Below are positions 11,644 to 57,269 of a stretch of DNA of 64,000 nucleotides, one piece after another. The notes under the pieces were generated by a model. It had not been told where the DNA came from. It saw nothing but the letters and a program-made list of their open reading frames with translations, and did not search any database. Numbering within the stretch: position 1 is the stretch's first letter; each line of letters opens with the position of its first letter. The stretch lies in IMG/VR virus record IMGVR_UViG_3300042544_003430; one strand, 5' to 3'. Both the position numbers and the translations under genes were made by a program. The stretch is from a virus. Its lineage: Duplodnaviria > Heunggongvirae > Uroviricota > Caudoviricetes.

Positions 11644-14600
11644 ATGGCTCAAAAGTATTTGAGCAAAGCTTTGGCTTTCGCTTTAACCTTGTTTGCAACA
11701 CAAGGAAATCTTCATGCAGCATGCGGGAATCTCACACCGAGTTTCAGTAATGCATCCAACAAAACCTGTGGTATACCTCAGGTAATTACACTTACCAATA
11801 CTTCCACTGGAAACAGTCGAAATGTAGCCACCTACAAGTGGTATGTGGGTACCACACTGCTGAGCACACAAGTTGGCAAATCCACCCAAAAATACACCAT
11901 CAACACTGCAGGTAGCTATACCTTCAAGTTGGTGGCGATAGATACGGGTAAGGTGGGCTGTAAAGACAGCACAAGCACTACCATTACCATTTCGGCATCT
12001 GTTCCGAGAATTTTGGATGGCAATAGAGTAAATACCTATTCTCCCATTTGGGAAAATTGTATAAGTTCATTGGGGGTTCCTGACACCTTTGGTATAAATA
12101 TCAAACCTCAGGATTCATTGCGAAATTACACCATAGTTTGGGGGGATGGCACCGGTAATTCTACTGGCACTTTACTGCTTAGCAGCCAATCCCTCTACCA
12201 TAAGTATAATTCACTAGGACAATTTACTTTATTAATCATCGGAACAAAGGGAAGTTGCACTGATACCCTTCGAGGTGTGGTGTCGAATGAAAGAAATCCT
12301 GTGGCTGGAATTGTGGGTCCACCAACAGGAACCAATGCAGGTTGTGTGCCCATTCGCATGCGTTTTATCAATAACTCTTCCTTAAGCTCACCTAGCACCA
12401 CTTTTACCTGGGATTTTGGCAATGGCGAAACCATAGTAAGGGGATTCAATACCCACAAAGACACTTTATTTTATACCTATAAGCGCTTTTTGTGTAATGG
12501 CATCGTGAAACTTACTCAAACCAATAATTGTGGTTCGAGTTTTGCCACCTGGAACCCAATCATGGCTTCCTCTAAGGATACTGCCATTATTGCGCCGACC
12601 AATCCGACCAACTGCGATCTTGCTGTACCTTTTACGTTTAACAATACCTCTCAAAATCGTTTTTGTAGCACGCCAAACAATAAGAAATACCTCTGGGTTT
12701 GGGGCGACGGAACCAATTCTGGTTGGAGTACTTCTTCTGCTTCGCAGTCTAAAACCTACAGCAAGCGCGGTGTGTACCAGGTCTTGCTGATTGATTCAAA
12801 TGGCTGCGGTAAAGATACTGCAAGGTATACCTTGCGTATCGATAGCATGCCTACCATTTCTGCAGGCCCAGCGTCGGCTGCAGGATGCTCACCTTTGGTG
12901 GTAAACTTCAGAGACAACAGCATAAATGCAACTTCTAGAAATTGGGATTTTGGATATGCAACACCAACAAGCAGTGCGCAAAACCCAACCCATACCTATC
13001 AAACAGGTGGTACATATAGAGCAGTGCTGACAGTAGCCAACAATTGTGGATCATTAAAAGATACTGTCCTTATTACTGTCAAACAAAAAGTAAAGGCAAA
13101 CTTCAATACACCGCTTACTGGCTGTGCTCCATTAACACAGAAATGGACCAATACATCTGTCAAAGGATTGGCAGGAACCCCTACATATTTCTGGGATTTT
13201 GGGGACGGAACAACTTCTACCCAGGTGAATCCTCCAGATAAAACTTACTCTACGTTAGGGACATATACCATTACACTCATTGCTACAGACTCATGCGGTA
13301 AGGATACCATTAAAAAGACGTTTACCGTCCGTGGTAAGCCCTCTGCTACAATTACTTTGTTATCTTCAAGCCGGTGTGTGGGCAGCACTTTAGATATTCG
13401 CTTTGTAACCTCACCCGTAAATACAGCTTCAGTTATCTGGGGTGATGGAACCAATGGCAGCAGTTATTTCGGATTGGGTGGTTCAGTTGACCGCACGGTT
13501 TCCAGAAAATACGACAGTCTGCGCACCTACAGATTTGGGGTAGTTATGGTGGATCCAAGCGGTTGCCGAGACACCAATTACCTAAACATTGCAATGGATC
13601 CAAGGCCTACGATGAACTATACCTACACCACAACCAATGGTTGTGGTCCTTTGGATGTTACATTTACCAATACCAGTGCGCACAATGGAGGGGGTAACAT
13701 CAACCAAATGAAGTTCTTATGGAACTTTAGTAATGGTATATTGGCTTACAGCAAAGATACTGCAGCTAGGTTCTTGCCGTTTAAAACAAGAGACTCTATT
13801 TATCCCGTTAAATTAATTGGAACAAACGCCTTTGGCTGCAGAGATTCCATTACCAAAACGGTTCGAGTTTATCCAAAACCATTGAGTAAATTTAGTATTA
13901 GTGAAAAGGATGGTTGTGCACCTTTGGATATTACTACTACGAACAATTCTACTCCATATGACACGGGTTCTATAAACATAATGAAGTTTATATGGGACTT
14001 TGGCAACGGCAGGAAAGCGTTTGGTAAAGATACTGCTGCTCGATTCTTAGCCAGTAAAACAAAAGATACTGTGTATACTGTTAGTCTGATATCTATTTCT
14101 GAACATGGTTGCCGAGATACCAGTTCAACCACAGTGCGTATTTATCCAAAACCTAAAGCCTTATTTACCAGAAGTAAAACTGAAGGTTGCAAACCACTCG
14201 GGGTTACCTATGTCAACCAAAGTGTACCCTACGATACCGGCAATATATCAATAATGAGTTTTGCTTGGGATTTAGGAAATAGAATTACCTCATTCGCTAC
14301 AGAACCTGTGGGTATCTATAATGATGCGATAAACAAAGATACTACTTATAAGGTACGTTTGATTGCCACTAGTGAGCACGGATGCAAGGATACTGCAAAT
14401 TCCACTGTACTGTTACATCCGAATCCGGTGATTAAATTTGATATGAGCCGCACCAATGGCTGCGGTCCATTGCCTGTGAGCTTCTCGAACAAGAGCATCA
14501 ACGGCGATGCATTTACTTGGGAGTTTGGCGTATATGGAACTGATACCGCAAAGAGTCCTAGTAAGGTATTCTATGGCCGCGATATTTTTGACTCAGTAGT

Positions 14601-16737
14601 AGTGGTGAAGCTTAGCGCGATGAGCAAATTTGGCTGCTTGAGTGATACGCTAAAAGACGAAGTGACGGTTTTTGGATTACCTATTGCCAACTATCTAGTT
14701 TCAACAGATACCTTCTGTTTCCCTGACCTGACGCAGTTTTTGAACCAAAGTTTGGCTTCCTACAACTACACTTGGGATTTGGGCGATGGCACTGTAACAG
14801 GAACTACAAACCCCAAACATTTCTTCAAGAAAAGCTCAAGTCCATTTAGTGATACTACCTATTTCATCAAACTTGTTGCTACAAGCCCTTACGGATGTAA
14901 GGACACCGCAAACGGCAGTATGACCGTATTGCCTTACCCTATTCCAAAATTCAGTGTTGACAATCCTGCGGGTTGTGCGTCACACACAGTGAAGTTCAAC
15001 AACCAGTCGGTAAACGTGTTGAATTACCTGTGGGTATTTGGAGATGGATATACATCAACCGATGTGAACCCTACCCATACCTTTATAAATACCGGTGCGA
15101 ATGATACGGCGTATCAGGTTGTTCTTTATACCTACTCTTTGGATTGTGTAGACTCTACTAGTATTTGGATACCAGTTTACAAGCCCTCGTATTCATTCTT
15201 CAGAACGGACCGGGTAAATCCATGTGATGCTGGATATTTTAAATTCCAGAGCTTTGGCGAAAATGCGCCAATTGTGAAGTACAATTTTGGTGATGGTAGC
15301 ACATCAACTTTTCCCAACCTAACGCATTTATTCCCAACCTCACCTTACACCGATACAAGCTTCATCGTTACACTATACACCACAAGCAATCGCGGTTGCA
15401 CAGACAGCTTTAAACGCACAGTTACGCTCCCACAGCGACTTTCTATCGGAATGAAAGACACCAGTTATGCGCTATGTGCTCCGACGGTAATTCAGTTTAC
15501 AAACTACACAAGGGGTGCACGCACATATATTTGGGACTTTGGAGATAATGGAGGAAGTTCTCAGAAGAACCCAATTTATGAATACCAAAAACCGGGCTTA
15601 TACGCATATAAGTTGTTTGCCTTTGACGCAAATGGGTGTATTGACAGTCAGGTTTCAAACGGCACTGTTCGTGTGGATGTGAGTCCTAAAGCGGATTTTG
15701 ACTTTAGTCCTGGTAAAGGCCGCATGCCAAATGACAACCGTATTTTCTTTACTGACAAGAGCCGCAGTGTGATACCACTGACCTATTTCTGGGATTTCTC
15801 GGATCCAGCGGGTATACCTGCAACGAGTACGATTCAAAATGCAACCCACGATTTTAGCGACTCTGGAGACTATAAAATCTGTTTGACGGTAGATAATGGG
15901 GGTTGTAAGAATATATTTTGCAATTTTGTACGCATCGATCCGGCATTTCCAACCCCAGATTTCTCGGTGGGTGGGGATTCGGGTTGCCCACCTCTTACCG
16001 TGCAGTTTACCAACCTTTCTGTGAACTCTGACCGCTATATATGGTTCTTTGGTGACGGTGAAAGAAGCGAGGACAAAGACCCAGTCCATACCTATAAGTA
16101 CAGCGGATATTACGACGTGATTTTGATCGCAAAAGGTCCAGGGGGTGAGGGTAAAACGGAGAAGAAGCAGTTCATAAAAGTATTGAATGCACCATTCACG
16201 TATTTCAATCTCACGCCCTCTATATTGTACCTTCCTGATGCCAAATTCACAACTCGAAACCTGACTACTGGAGCTGTAGGATATCAGTGGAATGTGTACA
16301 ACAGCAGCACTAGAAATCGAGTTGGGAATAGCCTTTTGGTGAATCCCTATTTCCAAGTAAACGATACGGGGCATTATGATGTGGAATTGATTTCAGTAAG
16401 CAGTCAGGTCTGTTATGATACCCTATTGTTGCCCAAGCCCATCTACGTGAATCCACGTGGCATATTGCATGTACCGGATGCCTTCACACCTACCAATGAT
16501 GAACGCAACGATGTGTTTAAACCAAGCGCGATAAACGTGCAAAAGGATTTCTATCTCTTCCAGATCTATAACAGATGGGGTGAAATCGTATTCGAAACCA
16601 AAGACCCCGATGAGGGTTGGGACGGCCGTAAAAAGGGCAAAATATGCCAAAGTGGAGTCTATGTATATAAAATCAATGCAAGACTCTTCAGCGGGGATGA
16701 TATTTCAGCGGATGGTGTGGTTCACTTGATTCGATAG
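11644..16737 (+). CDS. giant secreted PKD-repeat protein with Bacteroidota type-IX secretion (gliding-motility) C-terminal domain
   Basis: Signal peptide. Many repeats of the form W(D/V)FGDG..S....P.H.Y...G.Y.V.L (PKD-like). C-terminus VPDAFTPTNDERNDVFKP...YNRWGEIVF...DPDEGWDGRKKG...GVYVYKI resembles the T9SS type-B CTD. Confidence 0.7.
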   Translation: MAQKYLSKALAFALTLFATQGNLHAACGNLTPSFSNASNKTCGIPQVITLTNTSTGNSRNVATYKWYVGTTLLSTQVGKSTQKYTINTAGSYTFKLVAIDTGKVGCKDSTSTTITISASVPRILDGNRVNTYSPIWENCISSLGVPDTFGINIKPQDSLRNYTIVWGDGTGNSTGTLLLSSQSLYHKYNSLGQFTLLIIGTKGSCTDTLRGVVSNERNPVAGIVGPPTGTNAGCVPIRMRFINNSSLSSPSTTFTWDFGNGETIVRGFNTHKDTLFYTYKRFLCNGIVKLTQTNNCGSSFATWNPIMASSKDTAIIAPTNPTNCDLAVPFTFNNTSQNRFCSTPNNKKYLWVWGDGTNSGWSTSSASQSKTYSKRGVYQVLLIDSNGCGKDTARYTLRIDSMPTISAGPASAAGCSPLVVNFRDNSINATSRNWDFGYATPTSSAQNPTHTYQTGGTYRAVLTVANNCGSLKDTVLITVKQKVKANFNTPLTGCAPLTQKWTNTSVKGLAGTPTYFWDFGDGTTSTQVNPPDKTYSTLGTYTITLIATDSCGKDTIKKTFTVRGKPSATITLLSSSRCVGSTLDIRFVTSPVNTASVIWGDGTNGSSYFGLGGSVDRTVSRKYDSLRTYRFGVVMVDPSGCRDTNYLNIAMDPRPTMNYTYTTTNGCGPLDVTFTNTSAHNGGGNINQMKFLWNFSNGILAYSKDTAARFLPFKTRDSIYPVKLIGTNAFGCRDSITKTVRVYPKPLSKFSISEKDGCAPLDITTTNNSTPYDTGSINIMKFIWDFGNGRKAFGKDTAARFLASKTKDTVYTVSLISISEHGCRDTSSTTVRIYPKPKALFTRSKTEGCKPLGVTYVNQSVPYDTGNISIMSFAWDLGNRITSFATEPVGIYNDAINKDTTYKVRLIATSEHGCKDTANSTVLLHPNPVIKFDMSRTNGCGPLPVSFSNKSINGDAFTWEFGVYGTDTAKSPSKVFYGRDIFDSVVVVKLSAMSKFGCLSDTLKDEVTVFGLPIANYLVSTDTFCFPDLTQFLNQSLASYNYTWDLGDGTVTGTTNPKHFFKKSSSPFSDTTYFIKLVATSPYGCKDTANGSMTVLPYPIPKFSVDNPAGCASHTVKFNNQSVNVLNYLWVFGDGYTSTDVNPTHTFINTGANDTAYQVVLYTYSLDCVDSTSIWIPVYKPSYSFFRTDRVNPCDAGYFKFQSFGENAPIVKYNFGDGSTSTFPNLTHLFPTSPYTDTSFIVTLYTTSNRGCTDSFKRTVTLPQRLSIGMKDTSYALCAPTVIQFTNYTRGARTYIWDFGDNGGSSQKNPIYEYQKPGLYAYKLFAFDANGCIDSQVSNGTVRVDVSPKADFDFSPGKGRMPNDNRIFFTDKSRSVIPLTYFWDFSDPAGIPATSTIQNATHDFSDSGDYKICLTVDNGGCKNIFCNFVRIDPAFPTPDFSVGGDSGCPPLTVQFTNLSVNSDRYIWFFGDGERSEDKDPVHTYKYSGYYDVILIAKGPGGEGKTEKKQFIKVLNAPFTYFNLTPSILYLPDAKFTTRNLTTGAVGYQWNVYNSSTRNRVGNSLLVNPYFQVNDTGHYDVELISVSSQVCYDTLLLPKPIYVNPRGILHVPDAFTPTNDERNDVFKPSAINVQKDFYLFQIYNRWGEIVFETKDPDEGWDGRKKGKICQSGVYVYKINARLFSGDDISADGVVHLIR

Positions 16738-17180: not shown

Positions 17181-18083
17181 ATGTTACAATTAAATTTAGC
17201 AGACTCAGATAAGTCACAGATCAAATTTAAACCATCTGCATTTCCAGACGGCCAGCAATCAATCACTTTAGCTCTGTCCACAATCTCAGATCTAGAAATA
17301 TCTTGCACAATCAAGTCCAGATTAAATTCTTTCAGGGATTTAGAACTCATAGTCTGCGCAGCAGCTGCATTGAGAGAAGCTGGAATGGAAAGAATTCACC
17401 TTTATATTCCATACTGTCTAGGCGGAAGATCTGACATCAAATTTGAAGAAGGTGGCTTAAACTACATCAAGAGTGTAATTGCACCTATCATCAATTTACA
17501 AAAATTTACTTCTGTTACCGTCATGGATGCTCACTCGATAGCTCTAGAAAATTGCATTGATAATTTGAAAAAGCTAGACAATTCTTATCTTGCAAAATGG
17601 GCAATCAAGGATCTATCTTCAGAAGGAGGAGATTTCAAATTGGTCTCTCCTGATGCTGGAGCACTAAAGAAAATATTCTCAACAGCTAAATCTATCGGAT
17701 ATAAAGGAGAAATAATAGTTGCTGAAAAAGTTAGAGATTTATCTACCGGAAAAATTATTCACACCAAGGTACCTATAAACGTTTATGATGCAGATAAAGA
17801 TTTTATCATTATAGATGATATCTGTGACGGTGGGAGAACATTCATAGAAATCGCCAAGGCTATAGAAGAAATGAGATCTTTAAGTTCAGTGGTTCATCCA
17901 GATAAGCACGGAAAAAATTACCTTATCGTAACTCACGGCATCTTCAGCGCAGGATTTGAAGAACTTAGTAAATATTTTGATAGAATTTATACCACCAATT
18001 CTATCTCCGAAATAAACGAGTCTGAAAATTACAAAGGTGCTGAATTTGATAAACAATTTGTTAAACAACTAAACGTATTCTAA
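17181..18083 (+). CDS. ribose-phosphate pyrophosphokinase (PRPP synthetase) family protein
   Basis: PRPP-binding loop IIIDDICDGGRTF, overall Prs-like layout. Start trimmed to the ATG after motif A. Confidence 0.6.
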   Translation: MLQLNLADSDKSQIKFKPSAFPDGQQSITLALSTISDLEISCTIKSRLNSFRDLELIVCAAAALREAGMERIHLYIPYCLGGRSDIKFEEGGLNYIKSVIAPIINLQKFTSVTVMDAHSIALENCIDNLKKLDNSYLAKWAIKDLSSEGGDFKLVSPDAGALKKIFSTAKSIGYKGEIIVAEKVRDLSTGKIIHTKVPINVYDADKDFIIIDDICDGGRTFIEIAKAIEEMRSLSSVVHPDKHGKNYLIVTHGIFSAGFEELSKYFDRIYTTNSISEINESENYKGAEFDKQFVKQLNVF

Positions 18084-18084
18084 A

Positions 18085-18558
18085 ATGAAAGAAACACTAG
18101 AATTGAGAATGTATGGATTAGTTCCATATAACTTAAGCCCCATCCAGCAAGGGATCCAATTTGGACACGCAGTTGTTGAGTATGGGTTAACCCATTTCGG
18201 AGAAAAAAATTACCGGGATTGGGCTAACAATCATAAGACCTTTATCATTCTCAATGGAGGGACTACTAATAATTCCATAGATAAAGAAACAGGAAATCCA
18301 AAAGGAACTTTAAATCAGCATGCGGTAAACCTTAGAGATATGGGGATTCCTTTTTGCACCTTTTATGAGCCTGACTTAGGGGATCAATTAACAGCAGTAG
18401 TTTTTCTAGTAGACGAACATGTCTTCAACAGAGAAAAATATCCGGATCCAAGAGATCCATTTAATCAGGATTGGGCTTGGTCTGAGCATCTTAGCACAGA
18501 AGAACTTTCTAGAGTTTTGCAAATGAGAGACTTTTTAAAACAATTTAGATTAGCATAA
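18085..18558 (+). CDS. PTH2-family (peptidyl-tRNA hydrolase 2-like) protein
   Basis: Q.GIQFGHAVVEYG ... W...K.FIIL ... GIPF..F.EPDLG..TAVVF follows the PTH2 pattern and resembles the 30204 gene. Confidence 0.4.
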   Translation: MKETLELRMYGLVPYNLSPIQQGIQFGHAVVEYGLTHFGEKNYRDWANNHKTFIILNGGTTNNSIDKETGNPKGTLNQHAVNLRDMGIPFCTFYEPDLGDQLTAVVFLVDEHVFNREKYPDPRDPFNQDWAWSEHLSTEELSRVLQMRDFLKQFRLA

Positions 18559-19079
18559 TGGAATCATACTCAGAAATAGAAGGAGATTTAATCTCATTAG
18601 CAAAGCAAGGTAAATTTGAAGTTATCACCCATGGATGTAATTGCAGATCCCAAATGGGAGCAGGGATTGCACCACAAATGGCAAAAGCATTTGGATGCGA
18701 TAAATTCGAAATGGAAACTTGGGGTCCAACTATCGAAAAATTAGGCTGCATAGATTATGAAACTGTAGTTCTAGGAGAAAATGCAATCTGGAGTCTTCTG
18801 GATGCTAAAAATAACCGAAACGAACCTGAATTGGCCGTTGTTAATTCTTACACCCAAAACTACTACGGAAAGAATCACTCAGATGGGGTTTCCAAACCTT
18901 TAGACTACGAGGCTTTAACCCTTTGCATGAGGAAGATCAATTCTACCTTTAGAGGCAAACACATAGGAATGCCAAAAATAGGAGCAGGATTAGCTGGAGG
19001 AGATTGGAACAGAATAAAAAAAATCATACAGACCGAATTAAAAGACTGTAAAGTAACTATAGTAATATACAACAAATAA
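18558..19079 (+). CDS. macro domain protein, Poa1p-like (ADP-ribose-1''-phosphate phosphatase family)
   Basis: ITHGCNCRSQMGAGIAPQMAKAF matches the Poa1p-type motif HSCNC..WGGGIAYQ. Confidence 0.55.
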   Translation: MESYSEIEGDLISLAKQGKFEVITHGCNCRSQMGAGIAPQMAKAFGCDKFEMETWGPTIEKLGCIDYETVVLGENAIWSLLDAKNNRNEPELAVVNSYTQNYYGKNHSDGVSKPLDYEALTLCMRKINSTFRGKHIGMPKIGAGLAGGDWNRIKKIIQTELKDCKVTIVIYNK

Positions 19080-19099
19080 ATTAAATAAAATAAAATATC

Positions 19100-19459
19100 A
19101 TGGACAATCAAATTGATGAAATGACCGGAACCTTGGAAGAAATGAAAGGTGCATTCGTAGGCTCTTTAGTGCGTAACAACAAAAAGATCCGCGAAGACAG
19201 AGCAATCGCAATCGCAGAAGCTGCTCAAATGCTCTACAAAAGAAAAGTTGAGGACACAGAATTAGCTATTAAACAGCTAAAAAGAGAAAGAGAATCTATG
19301 TTAGACCTTAGTCCAACAACAGCAGATTCTTTGGTAATGGCTTCAGATTTTGACGCAGAAGCTTTCATCCAAAAGGATGTAGAGATCGGTCTCAAAATTA
19401 GAAATTTAGAGATCACTCTAGAAATTGCAAGAACTCGTTACAACCACTTATTTGAATAA
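19100..19459 (+). CDS. hypothetical coiled-coil protein
   Basis: Heptad-rich 119-aa ORF. Confidence 0.35.
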   Translation: MDNQIDEMTGTLEEMKGAFVGSLVRNNKKIREDRAIAIAEAAQMLYKRKVEDTELAIKQLKRERESMLDLSPTTADSLVMASDFDAEAFIQKDVEIGLKIRNLEITLEIARTRYNHLFE

Positions 19460-19464
19460 TCCGT

Positions 19465-20346
19465 ATGGGAAATTCAAGTTATTCTACCTATAATAGATCC
19501 ATCAGATCCGAATCTTTTGGCTATCATAGCAAATCAAGAAACGAGATCTTTACCCAAAGTAAAGAGGGTAAAGCTCACGAGCAAATGAGACCTAAAGGAA
19601 TCGTCTACAGAGAATGTAGAGATTCCGAGGCTCACCCGAATGCTACCCCGATTCAGCTTTATTTGGACGTTACCGGAAGCATGGGACATATTCCCCACGA
19701 AATGATTAAAGACGGTTTACCAACTTTAATGGGGAATCTAATTCAAAGAGGTGTAGAGGATGCTTCCCTTATGTTTGGAGCTATCGGTGACCACGAATGT
19801 GACAAATCACCTCTCCAAGTTGGACAGTTTGAATCTGGTGACGAAGAATTGGACATGTGGCTTACCAGAACCTGGCTCGAAGGCGGAGGTGGTGGAAACG
19901 GCGGAGAAAGCTATCCATTAGCTTGGTATTTCGCAGGAAATCACGTTGCAACAGATGCTTGGGAGAAGAGAAACCAAAAAGGATTCGTATTCACTATCGG
20001 TGATGAGCCTTTCCTTAATTCTCTACCAATGTCTGCAGTAAAGGAAATCATGGGGGATTCAGCATCAGGCCAATCTACTTGGGATGCTACAGTTCTTCTA
20101 GAACAAGCTCAAAAGACAAATCACGTTTTCCATATCTTCTTAGAACATGGTTACAGAAAAGTTGATTCGGCTTGGAAAGAATTAATGGGAGATCACCTTA
20201 TAGTTGCAAAAGACTATAAAGATATCCCGAAAATTATCTCAGAAACAATTTTAACTATTCAAGGGGAAAGAAAACCTTCTGAGAATGCGACCGTATATTC
20301 TAGTAATACTACAGATGAAAAAGACTCTGTAGATATTATCCTATAA
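19465..20346 (+). CDS. von Willebrand factor A (vWA) domain protein
   Basis: MIDAS-like LYLDVTGSMG motif. Confidence 0.5.
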   Translation: MGNSSYSTYNRSIRSESFGYHSKSRNEIFTQSKEGKAHEQMRPKGIVYRECRDSEAHPNATPIQLYLDVTGSMGHIPHEMIKDGLPTLMGNLIQRGVEDASLMFGAIGDHECDKSPLQVGQFESGDEELDMWLTRTWLEGGGGGNGGESYPLAWYFAGNHVATDAWEKRNQKGFVFTIGDEPFLNSLPMSAVKEIMGDSASGQSTWDATVLLEQAQKTNHVFHIFLEHGYRKVDSAWKELMGDHLIVAKDYKDIPKIISETILTIQGERKPSENATVYSSNTTDEKDSVDIIL

Positions 20347-21404
20347 TGAATACGAGCAAAATAGTAATTGGACTAAACTACGGAGACGAAGGAAAGGGGT
20401 TAACCACCTCTTTCCTCTGTTCCCAATCTAAAAATCCCATCGTTGTTAGATTCAACGGGGGTCACCAAGCAGGTCACACAGTATCCTTCAAAGGAAAAAG
20501 ACATGTGTTTTCTAGCTTTGGATCAGGAACACTTCAAAAAGTTCCAACGTACTGGAGCAAATATTGCACATTCTCTCCGACAGCATTTCTAAATGAATTA
20601 AAATTTCTACTGGATAAATCTTTAAAATTCCCAGGATTTTATCTTGATCCTTTATGTCCAATCACAACACCTTACGATTTATACAGCAACCGAAAAGATT
20701 CCCAGAATGTGAGTCATGGAACAGTCGGGGTAGGATTTGGATCAACTCTTAAAAGACACGAAAACTTTTATAAGCTTTATGCACAGGATATGTTCTATCC
20801 AGAAGTCTTCAAAGCAAAATTAGAAAACATTGCTAAGTATTACGGAATGGAGGATCTCGAAATCGATAACTTTTTAGAAGACGTAACAATTGTAACTACT
20901 ATAGTTCAATTGACAAATGAAAAAGTTCTTTTAAATTATTCAGATGCTATATTTGAAGGGGCTCAAGGGGTTCTTTTAGATATGGATTTTGGATTTTTTC
21001 CAAACGTTACCAGATCTAATACAACATCTAAAAATGCACTGGAAATTTCTCCTCTGCATTCAAACGAAATCTACTACATCACAAGATCTTATTTAACTAG
21101 ACACGGAGCTGGATTTCTTCCAGGAGAAAAAGAACTTCCCCTAATTAATAATGAATTGGAGACAAACGTCTCTCATGAATACCAAGGAAATTTTAGAACA
21201 GCAGATTTAGATTTGGATCTTCTAAACTATTCTTTAAAATGTGACTCTCATTTTTCTGAGGGTCAAACCAAAAATCTAGTAATTACCTGCATGGATCAAT
21301 ATCCAATAGATGTAGAAAAATTGCTAGAAAAATTAGAAATTAAATTCAATAAAGTGTTCGTCTCTTACGGGGATTCACTTGATAAAATACAACAATTAAA
21401 ATGA
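20346..21404 (+). CDS. adenylosuccinate synthetase family protein, short form (PurA/PurZ-like)
   Basis: GDEGKGL, GGHQAGHT, FEGAQGVLLDMDFGFFPNVTRSNTT and LTRHGAGFLPGE match PurA P-loop and switch motifs. Only 352 aa. Confidence 0.75.
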   Translation: MNTSKIVIGLNYGDEGKGLTTSFLCSQSKNPIVVRFNGGHQAGHTVSFKGKRHVFSSFGSGTLQKVPTYWSKYCTFSPTAFLNELKFLLDKSLKFPGFYLDPLCPITTPYDLYSNRKDSQNVSHGTVGVGFGSTLKRHENFYKLYAQDMFYPEVFKAKLENIAKYYGMEDLEIDNFLEDVTIVTTIVQLTNEKVLLNYSDAIFEGAQGVLLDMDFGFFPNVTRSNTTSKNALEISPLHSNEIYYITRSYLTRHGAGFLPGEKELPLINNELETNVSHEYQGNFRTADLDLDLLNYSLKCDSHFSEGQTKNLVITCMDQYPIDVEKLLEKLEIKFNKVFVSYGDSLDKIQQLK

Positions 21405-21874
21405 AAATAACAGAAAAATATGTCTTCTTTTGGAACGGGATTTATTCTCAGTGGCACAAAGCAAAAATGACAATCGACGGTGTTGAGTATAGCTCTTGTG
21501 AGCAATATATGATGCATCAAAAAGCTATCGTCTTCAGCGACTTTTATATTGCATCTCAGATACTTCTGACAGAGAATCCGAAAGAGCAAAAAGCACTCGG
21601 AAGACAAATTCAAGGGTTTGATAAAAACATTTGGGATTCGGTTTGCTTGAGCATAGTCTATAAAGGAAATCTAGCTAAATTTTCTCAAAATGAGGATCTA
21701 AAATCAGATCTTCTTTCCACCGAGAATAGAATCCTGGTAGAAGCTTCACCCTTGGATCAAATTTGGGGAATTGGAATGGCAGAGGATCATCCAAATATAG
21801 AATCTCCAGAACACTGGAGGGGACTGAACTTGCTTGGATGGGCGTTAAACTTAGTAAAAAAAGAATTAAATTAA
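21401..21874 (+). CDS. NADAR / YbiA (DUF1768) domain protein
   Basis: FFWNG.YSQWH...EYSSCEQYMMHQKA...ALGRQIQGFD...W...VYKGNLAKFSQN..L...LL.T....LVEASPLDQIWGIG is the YbiA/NADAR signature. Confidence 0.75.
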   Translation: MKITEKYVFFWNGIYSQWHKAKMTIDGVEYSSCEQYMMHQKAIVFSDFYIASQILLTENPKEQKALGRQIQGFDKNIWDSVCLSIVYKGNLAKFSQNEDLKSDLLSTENRILVEASPLDQIWGIGMAEDHPNIESPEHWRGLNLLGWALNLVKKELN

Positions 21875-22114
21875 ATGAAAAGTACAGAATTTGCATATTG
21901 GTTACAAGGGTTCTTCGAACTTAGCGAAACTAACACCTTGTCGGAAAGACAGGTCGAAACTATTAAAAATCATTTGAAGCTGGTTTTCTATCATGAGATA
22001 GATCCTTCCTATTCTACAGATCCTGTAGTACAGGAAACCATGCAAAAAATTCACGACGGAGAACCTCAAAAGAGAACTCCGAGAAATTCTAACCCAAGAA
22101 CTATAAAATGTTAA
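21875..22114 (+). CDS. small hypothetical protein, tandem paralog A
   Basis: Shares the YWLQGFFEL...Q...IK..L...F pattern with the next ORF. Confidence 0.35.
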   Translation: MKSTEFAYWLQGFFELSETNTLSERQVETIKNHLKLVFYHEIDPSYSTDPVVQETMQKIHDGEPQKRTPRNSNPRTIKC

Positions 22115-22377
22115 CCATGGAAGAAACAAGAAATTTTGTTATCTGGCTTGATGGATTTCTAGAAGCTTGCGGGCCAACTCCAACTAAGGAGCAGGTCGAA
22201 AAAATAAAATCCAGGCTGAATGGAATTTTTGAGCATGTTGCAGAAATCCCAGCTAAGGAGAACGAAAAACCGTCTCTAGAGGAATTAGGACAAGAACATG
22301 GATTTAATGTATATCCCGGATTTCCTGGATCAGGATTTCCTTTTAGAGATGAAGGTGGTGGTTTATTAAGATGCTAA
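22108..22377 (+). CDS. small hypothetical protein, tandem paralog B
   Basis: VIWLDGFLEAC...EQVEKIKSRLNGIF. Confidence 0.35.
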   Translation: MLTMEETRNFVIWLDGFLEACGPTPTKEQVEKIKSRLNGIFEHVAEIPAKENEKPSLEELGQEHGFNVYPGFPGSGFPFRDEGGGLLRC

Positions 22378-22722
22378 ATGAGTAGAGTAATTTATATAGC
22401 TTCTCCTTATTCTAATCCCGACCCTGATGTTACCGAGGAGAACTTTAAAAAAGTCTCGAGGCTTGCGGCTAAGCTTTGCTCAGAGGGTCAGGTTGCAATT
22501 TCCCCTATTACTTATGGTCACACGCTGGTTGGATTTAAACCAATGCCAATTGACTGGCCATTCTGGGAGAATTTTTGTCTTTCCATTCTCCAGGCTTGTG
22601 ACGAAATCATAGTTTATAAAATGGAAGGTTGGGATAGATCGAGAGGTGTTGCAGAAGAGGTCGAATTTGCCAGAAGAAAAGGAATCCAGATCACGTATAT
22701 GGAATATGATCCTTCTATCTAA
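22378..22722 (+). CDS. nucleoside 2-deoxyribosyltransferase-like (DUF4406/Rcl-fold) protein
   Basis: VIYIASPYS N-terminal motif typical of the family. Confidence 0.4.
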   Translation: MSRVIYIASPYSNPDPDVTEENFKKVSRLAAKLCSEGQVAISPITYGHTLVGFKPMPIDWPFWENFCLSILQACDEIIVYKMEGWDRSRGVAEEVEFARRKGIQITYMEYDPSI

Positions 22723-22731
22723 CCGTATATT
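22723..22731 (+). promoter_or_regulatory. motif A upstream of 22748
   Basis: taaCCGTATATTtaaataaaatacctttATG. Confidence 0.5.
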
Positions 22732-22747
22732 TAAATAAAATACCTTT

Positions 22748-23191
22748 ATGGAATTAAGAGAATATTTCGAAACAAATCCGGACTCTATCCCTTATCTAGA
22801 AAGACTAGAAAGTGAATGGGAACAGTATGGAAAGATAATCATCGGATGTGATTATGACGACACAATTTCCCCATGGAAGATGGAGAATTTTAATCCAGAA
22901 AGGGTTCTAGAAGTTCTAAAGGTTGCTAGAGAAACCGGAGCTTACATCGTAATCTTTACTTCTTGTGACAAAGCAAGATATCCAGAAATCGAAGACTATT
23001 GTAAAAGCATTGGCCTCACAATCGACTCGATCAATAAAAATCCAATCGACTTACCTTACGGTAAAAAAGGTAAAATCTATGCCAACATTTTCCTGGATGA
23101 CAGAGGTGGAATGAATGAATCCCTAAACATTCTAGAAATGGCAACGTATAGAATTAGAGGAAAAAGAAGAGTTTTAGGAATCAACGTATAA
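22748..23191 (+). CDS. HAD-superfamily hydrolase-like protein
   Basis: IIIGCDYDDTIS (DxDxT motif I). Confidence 0.4.
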   Translation: MELREYFETNPDSIPYLERLESEWEQYGKIIIGCDYDDTISPWKMENFNPERVLEVLKVARETGAYIVIFTSCDKARYPEIEDYCKSIGLTIDSINKNPIDLPYGKKGKIYANIFLDDRGGMNESLNILEMATYRIRGKRRVLGINV

Positions 23192-23199
23192 TTAAGAAA

Positions 23200-23364
23200 A
23201 TGAAAATGAACCCAAAAGAAAAAGAATTGGAAAATATCCAATCCCAACAAAACCCTTCAAAAGAGGTTAATCCAACCGAGTCTGTAATAATAAAACAGAT
23301 CGAGGATGATTTTGAATATCAAGAATATTATTCAGAAAATTCTCCTAATTTCGACGTAGATTAA
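23200..23364 (+). CDS. small acidic ORF (54 aa), not in the ORF track
   Basis: ATG at 23200 and TAA at 23362 in a 210-bp gap. Protein-like composition. Confidence 0.25.
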   Translation: MKMNPKEKELENIQSQQNPSKEVNPTESVIIKQIEDDFEYQEYYSENSPNFDVD

Positions 23365-23373
23365 TCAGGAGGA

Positions 23374-23382
23374 CCGTATATT
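23374..23382 (+). promoter_or_regulatory. motif A upstream of 23402
   Basis: ggaCCGTATATTcaataaaataataaatattATG. Confidence 0.5.
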
Positions 23383-23401
23383 CAATAAAATAATAAATAT
23401 T

Positions 23402-24931
23402 ATGTTTAAATGTAATTCACTATTCTACACAGACGGCTACAAAATTGGCCACAAAAGAATGCTAGCACCAGGAACAACTCGTTTATACGGAACCTGGATT
23501 CCACGAAGTATTAAACACGCTCCAAAAGGAGTTAAAAAAATCGTATCGTTTGGCCAGCAACTAGCTGTTAAATGGTTACACGATGAATTCGAAGAAAATT
23601 TCTTCAAGCTTCCTTTAGAAGAAGCAATGGAATTCGGAAATGATATGGCAATGTATCTCGGCCTCGAGTATGATGCTTCTCATTTCGAAGCTCTCCACAA
23701 ATTAGGTTACTTGCCTATCAAAGTTAAATCTTTACCAGAAGGTATCGAAACTCTTCCAAATGTTCCACACATGACCTTCATTAATACCGTGGATGGATTT
23801 GCTTGGTTAACCCTTTATTTGGAAACCATCATCTCTTCATTAGCTTGGAAGCCTTCAACATCAGCTACAATCGCTTTACAGTACAAAAGAAACCTGATCG
23901 AATGGGTAAGAAAAACAGACCCTAAAAACATCTGGTTAGTTCCTTTCCTAGCTCACGACTTCTCGGCTAGAGGTTTGTCTCCTTGGGACATGTTAGCAAG
24001 CGGTTTAGGACACGCTACATCATTCAGAGGTTCAGACACAATAGTTTGTATCCCAGCAGCTCGATACTTCTACAACGAGCCTAAAAACGAGGTCTGCATC
24101 AATTCTGTAAACGCTTCAGAACACTCAGTATCTACCACCAAAATTTTCACAGTCGGCGAACAACAAATGATAGCAGACTGGTTAAGAGAATTCGACAAAG
24201 GTATCCTTTCAATCGTTTCAGACACATTCGATTTATGGACACTAATCACCAAATATTTACCTGCCAACAAAGAGGCTATCATGGCCAGAGACGGTAAATT
24301 GGTTATCAGACCTGACTCAGGAGACCCAGTAGATATTATTTGCGGATTAGAAAATAAAGTTCTTGAGGAAGGAGTGGGATATAAAGAAGAATACAAAGAA
24401 AGCCCAGAATACAAAGGAGTTATCGAATTACTTTGGGACATCTTCGGAGGTACAATCAACGAAGAAGGTTACAAAGTACTTGATCCTCACATCGGAGCAA
24501 TCTACGGGGACTCTATTACCTTGGACAGACAAATCCAAATCTACGAAAGATTAGCAGCTAAAGGATTTGCAACTACCAATATCGTTTTAGGTATCGGTTC
24601 TTACACCTACCAAATGAACACCAGAGACACCTTAGGCTTCGCAGCTAAAGGAGCATGGTTCGAAGTAGAAGAAAACGGTACTAAAGTAGGCTACGACATC
24701 TACAAAGATCCTATCACAGACGATGGAACTAAGAAATCCTTAAAAGGACTTATTAGAGTCGATGAAGTTTCAGTAACTTCCGAGGAAACTGGAATTACTT
24801 ATACTAAGTATGAAGTAAAAACCCAATGTACCCCAGAACAAGAAGAAGGAGGCATCTTACAAACCATCTACGAAAATGGTAAATTCTACAATCAAACTAC
24901 ATTAACTGAAGTTAGATCAAAATTAAACTAA
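23402..24931 (+). CDS. nicotinamide phosphoribosyltransferase (NAMPT/NadV) family protein
   Basis: FYTDGYKIGHKRM, SFRGSDT and VIRPDSGDP match NAMPT signature regions. 509 aa. Confidence 0.85.
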   Translation: MFKCNSLFYTDGYKIGHKRMLAPGTTRLYGTWIPRSIKHAPKGVKKIVSFGQQLAVKWLHDEFEENFFKLPLEEAMEFGNDMAMYLGLEYDASHFEALHKLGYLPIKVKSLPEGIETLPNVPHMTFINTVDGFAWLTLYLETIISSLAWKPSTSATIALQYKRNLIEWVRKTDPKNIWLVPFLAHDFSARGLSPWDMLASGLGHATSFRGSDTIVCIPAARYFYNEPKNEVCINSVNASEHSVSTTKIFTVGEQQMIADWLREFDKGILSIVSDTFDLWTLITKYLPANKEAIMARDGKLVIRPDSGDPVDIICGLENKVLEEGVGYKEEYKESPEYKGVIELLWDIFGGTINEEGYKVLDPHIGAIYGDSITLDRQIQIYERLAAKGFATTNIVLGIGSYTYQMNTRDTLGFAAKGAWFEVEENGTKVGYDIYKDPITDDGTKKSLKGLIRVDEVSVTSEETGITYTKYEVKTQCTPEQEEGGILQTIYENGKFYNQTTLTEVRSKLN

Positions 24932-24942
24932 AAAAATCGGTA

Positions 24943-24965
24943 TCACCGGGGGGTTTCCCCGGTGA
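24943..24965 (+). terminator. GC hairpin (TCACCGGGG-ggttt-CCCCGGTGA) after NAMPT
   Basis: Perfect 9-bp inverted repeat with no T-run. Abuts the next motif A copy (CCGTATATC, 24966-24974). Confidence 0.35.
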
Positions 24966-25006
24966 CCGTATATCACCAAGAACAATTAATCAATAAAAAA
25001 TAAAAA

Positions 25007-26929
25007 ATGACAATCCAATTAGCTTTAAGCTACGCATGGGTATTAATCCCGCTCCTAGCAATTGTGTTTTACAAATTCACATTGCGAGTATTCTTCGGTA
25101 TGATCATCATCCCGGAAGACAAAATCGGTCTAGTTACAAAGAAATTCGTTCTCTTTGGTTCTAATAGATCTCTACCAGACGGTAAAATTATCGCACTTAA
25201 TGGAGAAGCAGGTTTCCAAGCAGATCCATTAGCTCCTGGTTTGTATTGGTTCTACTGGGTATGGCAGTATTCTGTCGATGAAGCTTCATTAACCGTTATC
25301 CCACAAGGAAAAATTGGTCTATTATCAGCTAAAGACGGTAATCCACTTCCAACCGGTTCGATTTTAGCCCGTCACGTAGAATGTGATAATTATCAGGATA
25401 CCAGATCTTTCTTAACACAAGGTGGACAAAGAGGTAAACAGGTAGGTTATCTTAACAACGGTGTATATCGTATTAACACTTTCTTATTTGACATCTCAGT
25501 TACTGAAATCACTTATATCGAAGATGGAATGGTAGGTGTAGTAACAGCTTTAGATGGTATTCCACTAGGTCCAGGTAGCATTGCAGGTAACCAAATCGAA
25601 GGTCACAACAACTTCCAGGACTTTGATAAATTCTTAGGAGCCGGCGGTCAAAGGGGTTTACAGACTCAAGTTATCCAGGCAGGTTCTTACTCACTTAACC
25701 CTTGGGCAGTAGAGATTGAGAAAAAAGAAATGACTCAAATTCCTATCGGTCACGTTGGGGTAGTAATCTCATTCGTTGGAGAAGAAGGAGTAGACACAAG
25801 TGGAGAGACCTTCAAACATGGTAATATCGTTAAGAAGGGTCAAAGAGGGGTATGGGCAACACCATTAGATCCAGGTAAATACGCAATCAACCCTTACACT
25901 CAAAAAATCGAGATCGTACCAACCACTAACTTGGTTCTTAACTGGGCAAATGCTCGTAACGAATCTCACAATCTGGACAAGAACTTAAGTACAATTACAG
26001 TTCGTTCCAAAGACGGTTTTCCATTCAATATCGATGTATCTCAGATCATCCACATACCAGCAAATGAAGCACCCAAGGTAATCGCAAGATTTGGATCAAT
26101 GGCTAACCTAGTATCTCAGGTTCTAGAACCAACGATCGGTAACTACTTCCGTAACTCTGCACAAGACTCAGATGTTATTGCTTTCTTGGCAACTCGTCAG
26201 CAACGTCAAAATGCGGCCAAAGACAATATTTCTAAAGTATTGGATGAATACAACGTTCATGCAGTAGATACACTAATTGGGGATATCGTTCCCCCTGAAT
26301 CTCTAATGAAAACCCTAACCGATCGTAAGATTGCACAGGAAGAAGAGATAACATTCGAAACTCAACGTAAAGCCCAAGACCAACGTAAGACTTTACAGTC
26401 AGCTAAAGCTCTAGCAGATATGCAAGGAGAGATGGTAAAAGCACAACAGTCAGTTGAAATTGCACAACGTGAAGCAGAAGCAGCAGTTAAGAAATCTGAA
26501 GGATCTGCTAAAGCGTTAGAATTAACCGCTGGTGGTAACGCTAAAGCTCTAGAATTAAAAGCTAATGCAGAAGCTAAAGCTAAGAAAGTAATGGCAGAAG
26601 CAGAAGCCCAACAAATCAAATTGACCGGTGAAGCTCAAGCTTTATCTATCGAGGCAATTGGTAAATCAACAGCCGAGTCTTACAGATTACAAGTAGAAGC
26701 AATGGGAGGCGACAACTTTGCTAACTTCAAAATCACTGAAGCAATCGGAGAAAACAAAATCAAAATTATCCCTGAATTCCTAATCGTAGGAGGTAACGGA
26801 GAAGCTAACCCAATGTCAGGACTATTAGGCCTTGAATTACTTAAAAAGTTCCAAGGTAAAGACCAAGACAATTCGGTTAAAACGATCGAGGTTAAATCAG
26901 AGGTTAAAGAAGAACCTAAAAAGAAATAA
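25007..26929 (+). CDS. SPFH/band-7 (flotillin-like) membrane protein
   Basis: N-terminal TM helix and a long Ala/Glu/Lys-rich coiled-coil tail, as in flotillins. Confidence 0.45.
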   Translation: MTIQLALSYAWVLIPLLAIVFYKFTLRVFFGMIIIPEDKIGLVTKKFVLFGSNRSLPDGKIIALNGEAGFQADPLAPGLYWFYWVWQYSVDEASLTVIPQGKIGLLSAKDGNPLPTGSILARHVECDNYQDTRSFLTQGGQRGKQVGYLNNGVYRINTFLFDISVTEITYIEDGMVGVVTALDGIPLGPGSIAGNQIEGHNNFQDFDKFLGAGGQRGLQTQVIQAGSYSLNPWAVEIEKKEMTQIPIGHVGVVISFVGEEGVDTSGETFKHGNIVKKGQRGVWATPLDPGKYAINPYTQKIEIVPTTNLVLNWANARNESHNLDKNLSTITVRSKDGFPFNIDVSQIIHIPANEAPKVIARFGSMANLVSQVLEPTIGNYFRNSAQDSDVIAFLATRQQRQNAAKDNISKVLDEYNVHAVDTLIGDIVPPESLMKTLTDRKIAQEEEITFETQRKAQDQRKTLQSAKALADMQGEMVKAQQSVEIAQREAEAAVKKSEGSAKALELTAGGNAKALELKANAEAKAKKVMAEAEAQQIKLTGEAQALSIEAIGKSTAESYRLQVEAMGGDNFANFKITEAIGENKIKIIPEFLIVGGNGEANPMSGLLGLELLKKFQGKDQDNSVKTIEVKSEVKEEPKKK

Positions 26930-27033: not shown

Positions 27034-27513
27034 ATGGCAAAAGTAATCAAACCAACAGACTCAGATCAAGAAGTAGAATTTTATCCGGCAGTATTTTTAG
27101 CAGGATCCATCGAAATGGGAAAAGCTGAAGACTGGCAAAAAACAGTTGAGAAAGAATTAGAAAAATTAGACGTTACAATTTTTAATCCTAGAAGAGATGA
27201 CTGGGATAGCTCATGGACTCAAGAGCAATCTAATCCACAATTTAATCATCAGGTTAATTGGGAGTTGAACAAATTGGAAAGATGTGATGCCATCTTCATG
27301 TACTTCTCTCCAGAAACACAATCTCCAATATCTCTACTAGAACTAGGAAGATATTCCACATACGGAAAAATGATTGTTTGTTGTCCTAAAGGATTCTGGA
27401 GAAAAGGAAACGTAGATATCCTTTGCACCAGAGAAAATATTCCAGTATTTGAGGATCTACAATCTGCTATCGGGGCTTTGAAAACTAGAATCAACCAACA
27501 AATAATAGATTAA
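27034..27513 (+). CDS. Rcl/DNPH1-like 2'-deoxynucleoside 5'-phosphate N-hydrolase / nucleoside 2-deoxyribosyltransferase family protein
   Basis: VFLAGSIEMG and LLELGRYS motifs typical of the family. Confidence 0.55.
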   Translation: MAKVIKPTDSDQEVEFYPAVFLAGSIEMGKAEDWQKTVEKELEKLDVTIFNPRRDDWDSSWTQEQSNPQFNHQVNWELNKLERCDAIFMYFSPETQSPISLLELGRYSTYGKMIVCCPKGFWRKGNVDILCTRENIPVFEDLQSAIGALKTRINQQIID

Positions 27514-28041: not shown

Positions 28042-28773
28042 ATGTTTAAATTTTATGAAGTTGGAGGAAAAATAAGAGACGAAATTTTAGAATTATCTTC
28101 TAAAGATGTTGATTATGTAGCAGTTCCGAAAGAAGAATTACTAGATACAGTTGAGAAGGCAGAAGATATGTTCAGCATGTTAGAATCTTTTCTAAGAGTA
28201 GAAAAATTTGAGATCTTCTTGGTAACCCCAGACTGTTTTACAATTAGAGCAAAATTCCCAGCAGGACACAAATACTCAGGGGTTGCAGACTTTGTAATGG
28301 CCAGAAAGGAAATTGGTTATATTCCAGGAACTAGAACCCCAATTGTTAAGCCGGGAACCCTATTTGACGATCTTCAGAGAAGAGATTTTACCCTAAACGC
28401 TTTAGCAAAAGACGAGGACGGAACCATAATCGATTTCTTTGGAGGAATAGAGGATCTAAAGAAAAACCGTTTAAAAACTCCACTAGACTGCAAAATAACT
28501 TTTGATGACGATCCGCTTAGAATTCTTAGGGCCATCAGATTTTGTATAACTAAAGGGTTTTGGATTGGACCCTATATGGACGGGGTAATTCAGGATTACG
28601 ACTACGAAGGAAAAATGGGGGTAGTTTCTATGGAGAGAATAAGAGAAGAATTGTTCAAATGTTTCAAACACGATACATTAAAAACCCTCAAAACACTTCA
28701 CGAATACCCAGCCCTAAGAAACTACATTTTTGAAAAAAATACACTTTGGTTAAAACCCACAATGGAGCAATAA
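28042..28773 (+). CDS. tRNA nucleotidyltransferase (CCA-adding)/poly(A) polymerase head-domain protein, minimal form
   Basis: YEVGGKIRDEILE...KDVDYVAV (Pol-beta NTase head) and the hallmark RRDFTLNAL motif. Only 243 aa. Confidence 0.65.
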   Translation: MFKFYEVGGKIRDEILELSSKDVDYVAVPKEELLDTVEKAEDMFSMLESFLRVEKFEIFLVTPDCFTIRAKFPAGHKYSGVADFVMARKEIGYIPGTRTPIVKPGTLFDDLQRRDFTLNALAKDEDGTIIDFFGGIEDLKKNRLKTPLDCKITFDDDPLRILRAIRFCITKGFWIGPYMDGVIQDYDYEGKMGVVSMERIREELFKCFKHDTLKTLKTLHEYPALRNYIFEKNTLWLKPTMEQ

Positions 28774-28778
28774 AATAT

Positions 28779-38139: not shown

Positions 38140-38149
38140 TAGCTAGAAA

Positions 38150-52961: not shown

Positions 52962-52962
52962 G

Positions 52963-57266: not shown

Positions 57267-57269
57267 ATT

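Follow-up and report, generated by a model that had tools for sequence, protein, structure and literature searches.

The window that we analysed, a stretch of 64,000 nucleotides from IMG/VR virus record IMGVR_UViG_3300042544_003430 (Caudoviricetes), covers 64 kb of a probably much larger phage genome and contains, between positions 17181 and 24931, a tight run of 14 plus-strand open reading frames (ORFs) separated by gaps of -7 to 37 bp. The run opens with a gene for a 300-aa protein of the Prs family that resembles the ADP-ribose pyrophosphokinase Adps (17181-18083, plus strand) and closes with a gene for a 509-aa protein that resembles the nicotinamide ADP-ribose transferase Namat (23402-24931, plus strand). 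These two genes share a strand and are separated by 5319 bp, a stretch that holds 11 ORFs, or 8 when those of 54-89 aa are left uncounted. A reading made earlier from the sequence alone had picked out five genes here, encoding a Prs-like protein, a PTH2-fold protein, a Poa1p-type macro domain, a NADAR/YbiA domain and a NAMPT-like protein, and all five are indeed real, tightly packed plus-strand ORFs lying within 17181-24931 where that reading had placed them. Eight ORFs of the interval were absent from its list: one of 119 aa, one of 293 aa, a PurA-like gene, two small ORFs, a DUF1937 gene resembling nucleoside 2-deoxyribosyltransferases (NDT-like), a HAD-type phosphatase gene and an ORF of 54 aa. 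Judged by homology, this is most likely a locus for NAD+ reconstitution of the NARP1-AP type, carried by a large uncultivated phage.

The Adps-like ORF contains the motif DDICDGGRTF and matches PHROG 619 ('ribose-phosphate pyrophosphokinase') with an E-value of 4e-59; its match to Pfam Pribosyltran is weak, and its PDB matches are to Prs only, the best at 2e-12. The ATG at 17181 fits the N-termini of the homologues as a start codon, whereas the TTG at 17133 does not. In a neighbour-joining tree with 500 bootstraps the protein grouped with the phage Adps enzymes, and a split with 99.6% support separated the 15 phage or Namat-linked sequences, the window protein included, from the four true Prs of human, E. 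coli, S. solfataricus and M. jannaschii. The references for this tree and for the Namat tree described below were proteins from annotated phage loci, E. coli Prs, human PRPS1 and NAMPT (both checked against the PDB), and PDB-derived segments of Namat and archaeal Prs. Identity is 29-35% to the Adps of phages alia (Bas63-like), ICP1, Ceto and Kudefre, 22-24% to those of SAML-12 and HonestAbe, and 20-24% to Prs. K183, within the motif EKVRD, is the catalytic Lys and aligns with K192 of Vibrio phage Gary, K162 of SPbetaL1, the (D/H)K(R/E)R of Prs and the KIRD of Ceto. The DDICDGGRTF loop is identical in alia Adps and reads DGGRT where Prs has DTGGT, and the protein is without the N- and C-terminal segments of Prs. 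All 11 NCBIfam models of Prs score it far below their cut-offs; TIGR01251, for instance, gives 82.7 bits against a cut-off of 113. Identification as a true Prs was ruled out by the tree together with these model scores. Homologues of the Adps-like protein occur in 1085 phage records. PHROG 12872, a family of 547 positions, matches the Adps-like protein over positions 1-281 and the C-terminus of the Namat-like protein over positions 374-534, which indicates that fused Adps-Namat proteins exist.

The Namat-like ORF contains the motifs TDGYKIGH and RPDSGDP and matches Pfam NAPRTase (7e-31) and PHROG 448 (2e-157). In the PDB its best matches, at 2e-113, are 9W5X and 9W5W, both structures of SPbetaL1 Namat, compared with 4e-47 for Xcc (Xanthomonas) Nampt and about 1e-40 for the human and other mammalian Nampt. 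A literature search for PDB 9KE8, a third Namat-like structure, gave nothing relevant. The neighbour-joining tree placed the protein inside the group of Adps-linked Namats, which separated from NadV and human NAMPT with 100% bootstrap support; the reference Namats, that of phage Lbo-JY46 excepted, are 41-46% identical to it, and NadV 27-30%. The tree ruled out a NadV identity for this NAMPT-like protein. The catalytic core described for SPbetaL1 Namat consists of D13, Y15, F189, R192, D215, the catalytic His, R306 and D308 (PMC12774641), and in both pairwise and multiple alignment with 9W5X all of these positions are conserved in the window protein, as D11, Y13, F187, R190, the D of GSDT, H241, R303 and D305. 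The window protein also shows the residues characteristic of the Namat state (HDFS, EHSV, RPDSGDPxxIICG, AIYGDS and GSYTYQMNTRD); the equivalents in NadV and human NAMPT are HDFG, EHST, IIQGD and GGGLLQ. The last of the window motifs is the counterpart of the helix in the 'selectivity clamp' of Namat, which combines a helix motif GSXxXxXxTRD with adenine-stacking aromatic residues and a variable loop (PMC12774641); in the window helix, Tyr stands at position 3 and Met at position 7. The identical protein is found again in many assemblies.

The second gene downstream of Adps (18558-19079, plus strand) encodes an Adpp-like macro domain of the Poa1p type, a predicted phosphatase of ADP-ribose (ADPR)-1''-phosphate. 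It contains the sequence HGCNC..MGAGIAPQ, scores 22.0 bits with Pfam Macro, which is exactly the cut-off, and matches PHROG 335 ('phosphatase') at 1e-41 and the PDB structure of Poa1p, 6LFU, at 9e-5; its assignment to the Poa1p type by the sequence-only reading stands. The protein is 28% identical over its full length to the Adpp of Vibrio phage Gary (E 1e-15), and its H25 and N28 correspond to H24 and N27 in the HxCN motif of that enzyme, at which the mutations H24A and N27A abolished function (bioRxiv 10.64898/2026.01.28.702374); we took the essential residues from the mutants in the strain table of that preprint. It also matches Ceto gp176 (E 2e-16), which is listed in table S1 of the same preprint on NARP1-AP. 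According to that work, a Poa1p-like macro gene is found in the operon of 15% of NARP1 phages, Gary Adpp converts ADPR-1''-phosphate to ADPR, and the three-gene NARP1-AP operon of Gary defeats the RES-domain defence aRES (10.64898/2026.01.28.702374). In the window, macro and a NARP1 gene are no more than two genes apart, the arrangement by which NARP1-AP is recognised. The published role, dephosphorylation of the ADPR-1''-phosphate made by aRES (10.64898/2026.01.28.702374), contradicts the earlier suggestion that a macro domain of this type would remove adducts of the DarT kind.

We compared the window with 80 IMG/VR loci of the same Adps subclade, in which Adps is 46-54% identical to the window protein; these loci were found with an alignment query, a single-protein scan of viral contigs having given one relative. 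Namat is present at 73 of the 80, nearly always downstream and in the same orientation; of the seven loci lacking it, four have incomplete flanks. The distance from Adps to Namat varies in the subclade from 8 to 6603 bp, being at most 150 bp in 15 loci and more than 3 kb in 12; the 5.3 kb of the window thus lies within the range of its lineage. Close relatives of the Adps-like protein are abundant in metagenomes, on contigs of up to 406 kb, and one of them, a 400-kb JGI contig that we call L003, has the same gene order as the window from Adps through the SPFH gene that follows Namat. A search of cultured phage records found no near-identical DNA; the closest cultured relative is Leptolyngbya phage Lbo-JY46, whose Namat is 67% and Adps 45% identical. 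On a 314-kb JGI contig (L004, 10001-11664), an Adps-like gene (56% identical) has a SIR2-domain gene immediately after it, close to where the contig ends.

Membership of the Adps clade and the Namat clade, together with the Adpp-like macro gene, leads us to the NARP1-AP assignment. In such a locus, a host defence NADase would split NAD+ into ADPR and nicotinamide, the Adps-like kinase would use ATP to convert ADPR to ADPR-pyrophosphate, and the Namat-like enzyme would then join ADPR-pyrophosphate and nicotinamide to restore NAD+. The macro protein would feed this pathway by removing the 1''-phosphate from ADPR-1''-phosphate, a product both of RES-type NADases and of NAD+-dependent removal of RNA 2'-phosphates, and some of the enzymes encoded in the interval (NADAR, HAD, NDT-like) may liberate ADPR from its other derivatives or adducts, or may undo ADP-ribosylation of guanine in DNA. 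We infer all of these enzymatic activities, and the role in counter-defence, from homology to tested enzymes. The pairing of the two NARP1 enzymes had been put forward by the sequence-only reading, which proposed a phylogeny as the check, and both proteins took their places in the NARP1 clades (99.6% and 100%). Its caution that the substrate of the Prs-like protein could not be read from the sequence holds in part: clade membership points to Adps, while Adps activity itself remains a prediction.

Several observations weigh against the NARP1-AP assignment. Osterman et al. used as their operational rule for Adps/Namat association a distance within 10 genes (bioRxiv 10.1101/2024.02.11.579819), and the window, with its 11 intervening ORFs, goes beyond that distance when the three of 54-89 aa are included. 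In the clamp helix, Met (M405) takes the place of Tyr or Phe at the second adenine-stacking position; among 72 Adps-linked Namats of the clade this position (position 7) is occupied by Y in 43 proteins, by F in 17, by M in 11 and by H in one, and in Namat the single mutation Y396K lowered activity only 1.3- to 1.7-fold (PMC12774641). The clamp loop, PRSIKHAPKG, has Lys-His (K38, H39) where SPbetaL1 has the stacking residue Arg40, with K38 aligning with R40. The macro family occurs in 2631 phage records and is thus far more widespread than NARP1-AP, so that membership alone does not fix the substrate. The trees are neighbour-joining trees on few reference sequences. Finally, the loci compared come from related phages, and locus counts therefore overstate the number of independent events.

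The interval between Adps and Namat holds further enzymes, one of which is the NADAR protein (21401-21874, plus strand), a predicted N-glycosidase of the Glu type, similar to YbiA and PnNADAR. The NADAR/YbiA domain noticed earlier is confirmed by Pfam (5e-50) and by TIGR02464 (152.6 bits against a cut-off of 73.7); the closest PDB matches are PnNADAR, 8BAU (2e-13), and YbiA (6e-6). The protein keeps VEASP.D.IWGIG, aligned with YEAS..D.IWGIG of PnNADAR, and is of the Glu type in the division of NADARs into Glu and His types (PMC11125620). Phage NADARs act as anti-DarT1 factors (AdfN) that strip ADP-ribose from guanine in DNA (PMC11825919), and such a role is plausible, by analogy, for the window protein. 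Iyer et al. 2022 predicted that phage NADARs cleave N-glycosidic ADPR derivatives as well. E. coli YbiA and T4 NADAR are active in vitro, yet they did not rescue uninfected cells from DarT1 toxicity (PMC11125620), and NADAR activity therefore cannot be assumed to be protective.

Downstream of NADAR, and beyond two small overlapping ORFs described below, lie a gene for a 114-aa DUF1937 or NDT-like protein (22378-22722, plus strand; Pfam 1e-19, PHROG 355), which occurs in the interval of 3 related loci, and a gene for a small capless HAD-type phosphatase of 147 aa (22748-23191, plus strand). The latter has the motifs DYDDT (DxDxT) and FLDDR and matches the NCBIfam BT0820 HAD phosphatase model at 2e-4, below its cut-off. 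Its AF2 model (pLDDT 89) has as best Foldseek match BT0820 itself (2OBB, probability 1.0), other matches being the phage AfhF sugar-bisphosphate phosphatase, Pnkp and GmhB. A second NDT-like gene, a Nuc_deoxyri_tr2 member (27034-27513, plus strand; Pfam 9e-38), lies outside the interval in the window and is a recurrent neighbour of NARP1: it is present at 37 of the 80 related loci, at 13 of them between Adps and Namat and at most of the others downstream of Namat.

The five commonest families of the interval among the 80 loci are macro (28 loci), HAD phosphatase (13), NDT-like (13), PTH2-fold (12) and NADAR (9), and the window contains all of them. Their density in the intervals, which total 102 kb, can be compared with that in about 935 kb of flanking DNA, and their spread can be counted over the 31 clusters into which the loci fall at 70% Adps identity. 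On these measures macro is 247 times denser inside the interval than in the flanks and occurs in 10 of the 31 clusters, NADAR is 73 times denser (between Adps and Namat in 8 of 73 loci; 4 clusters), the HAD phosphatase is 25 times denser (directly between Adps and Namat in 11 related loci; 6 clusters) and the NDT-like family is 5 times denser (7 clusters). The PTH2-fold family is found inside at 11 loci and outside at none (3 clusters). In the literature searched we found no description of links between NARP1 and NADAR, HAD, NDT-like or PTH2-fold proteins, the available supplementary table of neighbours covering macro proteins alone.

We tentatively suggest that the interval between Adps and Namat may be a site of accretion for a 'many-to-one funnel', in which NADAR, HAD and NDT-like enzymes would each convert a different defence-made derivative of ADPR to ADPR, leaving a single two-enzyme core to rebuild NAD+; the window would then be the most complete example seen. 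Candidate substrates for such a funnel are N-linked ADPR conjugates or signals, phospho-ADPR such as 2'-phospho-ADPR, and cyclic forms. We regard this model as possible rather than likely.

About as plausible is the view that the genes of the interval are unrelated cargo, collected at a permissive insertion site among auxiliary nucleotide-metabolism genes, with only Adps, macro and Namat working together. The content of the interval is highly variable among the 80 loci and includes many unassigned families, and the scans for promoters and terminators gave results at chance level. Those scans, for sigma-70 promoters and intrinsic terminators over 16.5-27.7 kb, returned counts at the level of shuffled sequence and are thus uninformative on operon structure. 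The 119-aa, 293-aa and PurA-like genes and the small ORFs, moreover, are confined to the window and its close relative L003. Against this, NADAR, HAD, NDT-like and PTH2-fold genes recur in 4, 6, 7 and 3 clusters, respectively, that are less than 70% identical in Adps, the density of these four families in the interval exceeds that in the flanks by factors of 5 to more than 70, and ribosyl-linked nucleotides are the common class of substrates for NADAR, macro and NDT/SLOG-type domains (Iyer et al. 2022). We conclude that the cargo explanation is likely for some genes of the interval, and that positional enrichment contradicts it for the five recurrent families.

Several genes may be such cargo. 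The 119-aa and 293-aa ORFs (19100-20346, plus strand) have no assigned function and no Pfam match, the latter being PHROG 2971; they are conserved only in the syntenic contig L003 and are probably cargo, not members of the pathway. The next gene (20346-21404, plus strand) encodes a short, 352-aa protein similar to adenylosuccinate synthetase, which matches Pfam Adenylsucc_synt (2e-41) and, in the PDB, most closely E. coli PurA (2e-28), and keeps the motif GDEGKG. It scores far below the NCBIfam cut-offs for PurA and PurZ, and the gene overlaps the start of NADAR by 4 nt. A PurZ connected with a 2-aminoadenine (Z) genome was considered and ruled out, NF038379 giving 40 bits against a cut-off of 300 and the best PDB match being a bacterial PurA; the PHROG name 'aminooxy adenylosuccinate synthetase' attached to this gene is a family label only. 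Among the related loci the gene was found only in the window and in L003, and it is best regarded as cargo. The two small overlapping ORFs after NADAR (79 and 89 aa; 21875-22377, plus strand) have related N-termini, belong to PHROG 28500 and 35763, both of unknown function, and occur in 2 related loci. Other interval families, seen in loci L015-L094 and absent from the window, are a Thg1-like protein of 278 aa (6 loci) and a YqeY-like protein of 152 aa (5 loci), both labelled by eye and candidates only, and unassigned proteins of 154 aa (8 loci), 71 aa (6 loci) and 136 aa (5 loci).

The PTH2-fold protein (157 aa; 18085-18558, plus strand), encoded between Adps and macro, raises a different question, namely whether part of the locus serves RNA rather than NAD+. 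The earlier assignment of this gene is upheld as to fold and fails as to sequence family. An AF2 model of the protein (pLDDT 91.8) has as its 13 best Foldseek matches in the PDB only PTH2 peptidyl-tRNA hydrolases, with probabilities of 0.85-1.0, E-values of 1e-3 to 2e-2 and target-normalised TM-scores of 0.39-0.63. There is no Pfam match to the protein even at E 10, and a profile built from 28 members of its family found no PTH2 chain among the PDB sequences. An alignment by eye tentatively suggested that an invariant Gln stands in for the catalytic Lys of PTH2 enzymes, the Asp being retained, and none of our conclusions draws on it. The protein belongs to a highly conserved phage family without a Pfam model, with 3674 homologues (PHROG 3668, 'hydrolase', 1e-17). 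In this clade the gene always adjoins macro (12 related loci). In three other lineages (L098, L099, L100) its homologues adjoin genes for PolyA_pol (CCA-adding), RlaP, an AAA_33 kinase, cREC_REC, Thg1, HAD_SAK_2 and Rv2179c-like exonuclease, a setting that points to a family acting at tRNA 3' ends. This occurrence in tRNA-repair modules makes membership of the NAD+ pathway doubtful, and the window protein is probably linked to tRNA.

These contexts suggest a reading in which macro, the PTH2-fold protein and NADAR form a module for the repair of tRNA or other RNA, the macro protein clearing the ADPR-1''-phosphate that arises when RNA 2'-phosphates are removed with NAD+ (the native role of Poa1p) and NARP1 recycling the spent NAD+. 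A trio of genes resembling those of tRNA repair, for a CCA-adding enzyme (PolyA_pol head), an RNase T/Rv2179c-like exonuclease and a HAD_SAK_2 'Swiss Army Knife RNA repair' phosphatase, lies 3-5 kb downstream of Namat (28042-30049). The neighbours of the PTH2-fold homologues elsewhere (PolyA_pol, RlaP, Thg1, HAD_SAK_2, cREC) and the candidate Thg1-like gene in the interval of 6 related loci also favour it, as do the RNA ligase or PNK genes that adjoin NARP1 in Ceto, alia and Kudefre and the connection of Macro and NADAR to RNA repair drawn by Iyer et al. 2022. Conversely, the window ORFs scanned yielded no KptA/Tpt1, 2H phosphoesterase or RNA ligase, macro is concentrated 247-fold in the Adps-Namat interval, and the homologous three-gene operon of Gary defeats aRES (10.64898/2026.01.28.702374). 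We consider this explanation rather unlikely as an account of the whole module, partly supported as it is by context; it does not exclude the NARP1-AP reading.

The weakest alternative, to which we give very little credence, is ordinary NAD+ salvage or a NARP2-like route, in which the Prs-like protein would make phosphoribosyl pyrophosphate (PRPP), the NAMPT-like protein nicotinamide mononucleotide (NMN) and an NMN adenylyltransferase (NMNAT) encoded elsewhere NAD+; both proteins do belong to the Prs and NAMPT superfamilies and are so named in databases, Namat keeps about half of the Nampt activity on PRPP in vitro (PMC12774641) and NCBIfam PRK09198 just passes its cut-off with the NAMPT-like protein (415 against 405 bits), but both proteins fall in NARP1 clades with 99.6-100% support, the Prs-like protein scores below the cut-off of every Prs model, Pfam scans of window ORFs found no NMNAT, NadR or Nudix, and SPbetaL1 Adps gave no product in the published control assay for Prs activity.

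Around the locus the window contains a varied set of genes; a scan of the window for tRNAs gave none. In the 75-bp gap after Namat is a G+C-rich hairpin with a 10-bp stem (24942-24966), which has a T-run on its minus-strand side only, and directly beyond it a gene for a 640-aa SPFH/Band 7 protein (25007-26929), found in the same place in L003 and in 5 related loci. Upstream of Adps, a gene at 11644-16737 encodes a 1697-aa protein that carries numerous PKD repeats and, at its C-terminus, a CHU_C type IX secretion signal, an unusual protein for a phage; the signal hints at a host in the Bacteroidota, and we regard such a host as probable. Genes for a MoxR-like AAA ATPase, a DUF2201 metallopeptidase and a vWA-like protein (36159-39703) form a minus-strand island, at which the GC skew flips, in an otherwise plus-strand region. 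A large cluster for glycan synthesis occupies 49927-62838 and includes glycosyltransferases of families 2, 7, 11 and 17, a galactosyltransferase, a DegT-type aminotransferase, a hexapeptide acyltransferase and a Polysacc_synt_2 dehydratase. Auxiliary genes at 2465-3076, 33173-34132 and 44795-46924 encode, respectively, a ferritin-like protein, a methylenetetrahydrofolate reductase and a ClpB-like double-AAA chaperone.

Depletion of NAD+ is among the commonest anti-phage strategies of bacteria, and NARP1, with its add-ons Adpp and RyDEP, represents the recycling of the breakdown products by phages. On the NARP1-AP reading, the locus described here would extend this system to large uncultivated phages, probably of Bacteroidota. 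NADAR, the small HAD phosphatase, the NDT-like protein and the PTH2-fold protein are four candidate 'feeder' activities, each of which would by implication signal a host defence whose product is a non-canonical form of ADPR. If the genes of the interval prove to be unrelated cargo, the locus is simply one more instance of NARP1-AP.

Comparison with known systems places the window closest to NARP1 and its derivatives. With NARP2, the combination of NadV and NMNAT known from phage KVP40, it shares a NAMPT-superfamily enzyme predicted to rebuild NAD+; the window enzyme, however, is 27-30% identical to NadV and lies outside its clade, and no NMNAT was found among the window ORFs scanned. Like AdfN (PMC11825919; PMC11125620), the window NADAR is a stand-alone phage protein with the catalytic motif, and its closest solved relative, PnNADAR, hydrolyses ADP-ribosyl-guanine; T4 AdfN is of the His type, in contrast to the Glu (YbiA-like) type of the window protein, which passes the YbiA model of NCBIfam and is encoded in an NAD+ locus. 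The logic proposed for the accessory enzymes of the window is that of RyDEP in the NARP1 locus of mycobacteriophage DyoEdafos (10.64898/2026.05.28.727677), where an inserted enzyme turns defence-made 2'/3'cADPR into ADPR for Adps. Here the two loci differ in the proteins involved: Pfam scans of the window region found no RyR-domain protein, and the accessory genes of the window encode other folds.

With NARP1 itself (Adps and Namat; 10.1101/2024.02.11.579819; PMC12774641) the window has in common the two clades, the Adps Lys, the Namat catalytic core, a counterpart of the GSXxXxXxTRD helix and the position of Adps upstream on the same strand. It differs in that the two genes, adjacent in NARP1, are 5.3 kb and 11 ORFs apart, in the Met of the clamp and the Lys-His in place of Arg in the loop, in an Adps-like protein that is 22-35% identical to the reference Adps, and in its setting in a large uncultivated phage, to which the 400-kb contig L003 is the nearest relative. 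The NARP1-AP of Gary (10.64898/2026.01.28.702374) shares with the window a Poa1p-type macro gene no further than two genes from Adps, and the window protein preserves both residues that are essential in Gary; in the window, by contrast, a PTH2-fold gene stands between Adps and macro, Namat does not come next, and NADAR, HAD and NDT-like genes are added. The core of the locus, NARP1-AP by homology, is of a kind already published (2024-2026), and what is new in this locus is its split and expanded architecture, the recurrent extra families and the setting in a large uncultivated phage.

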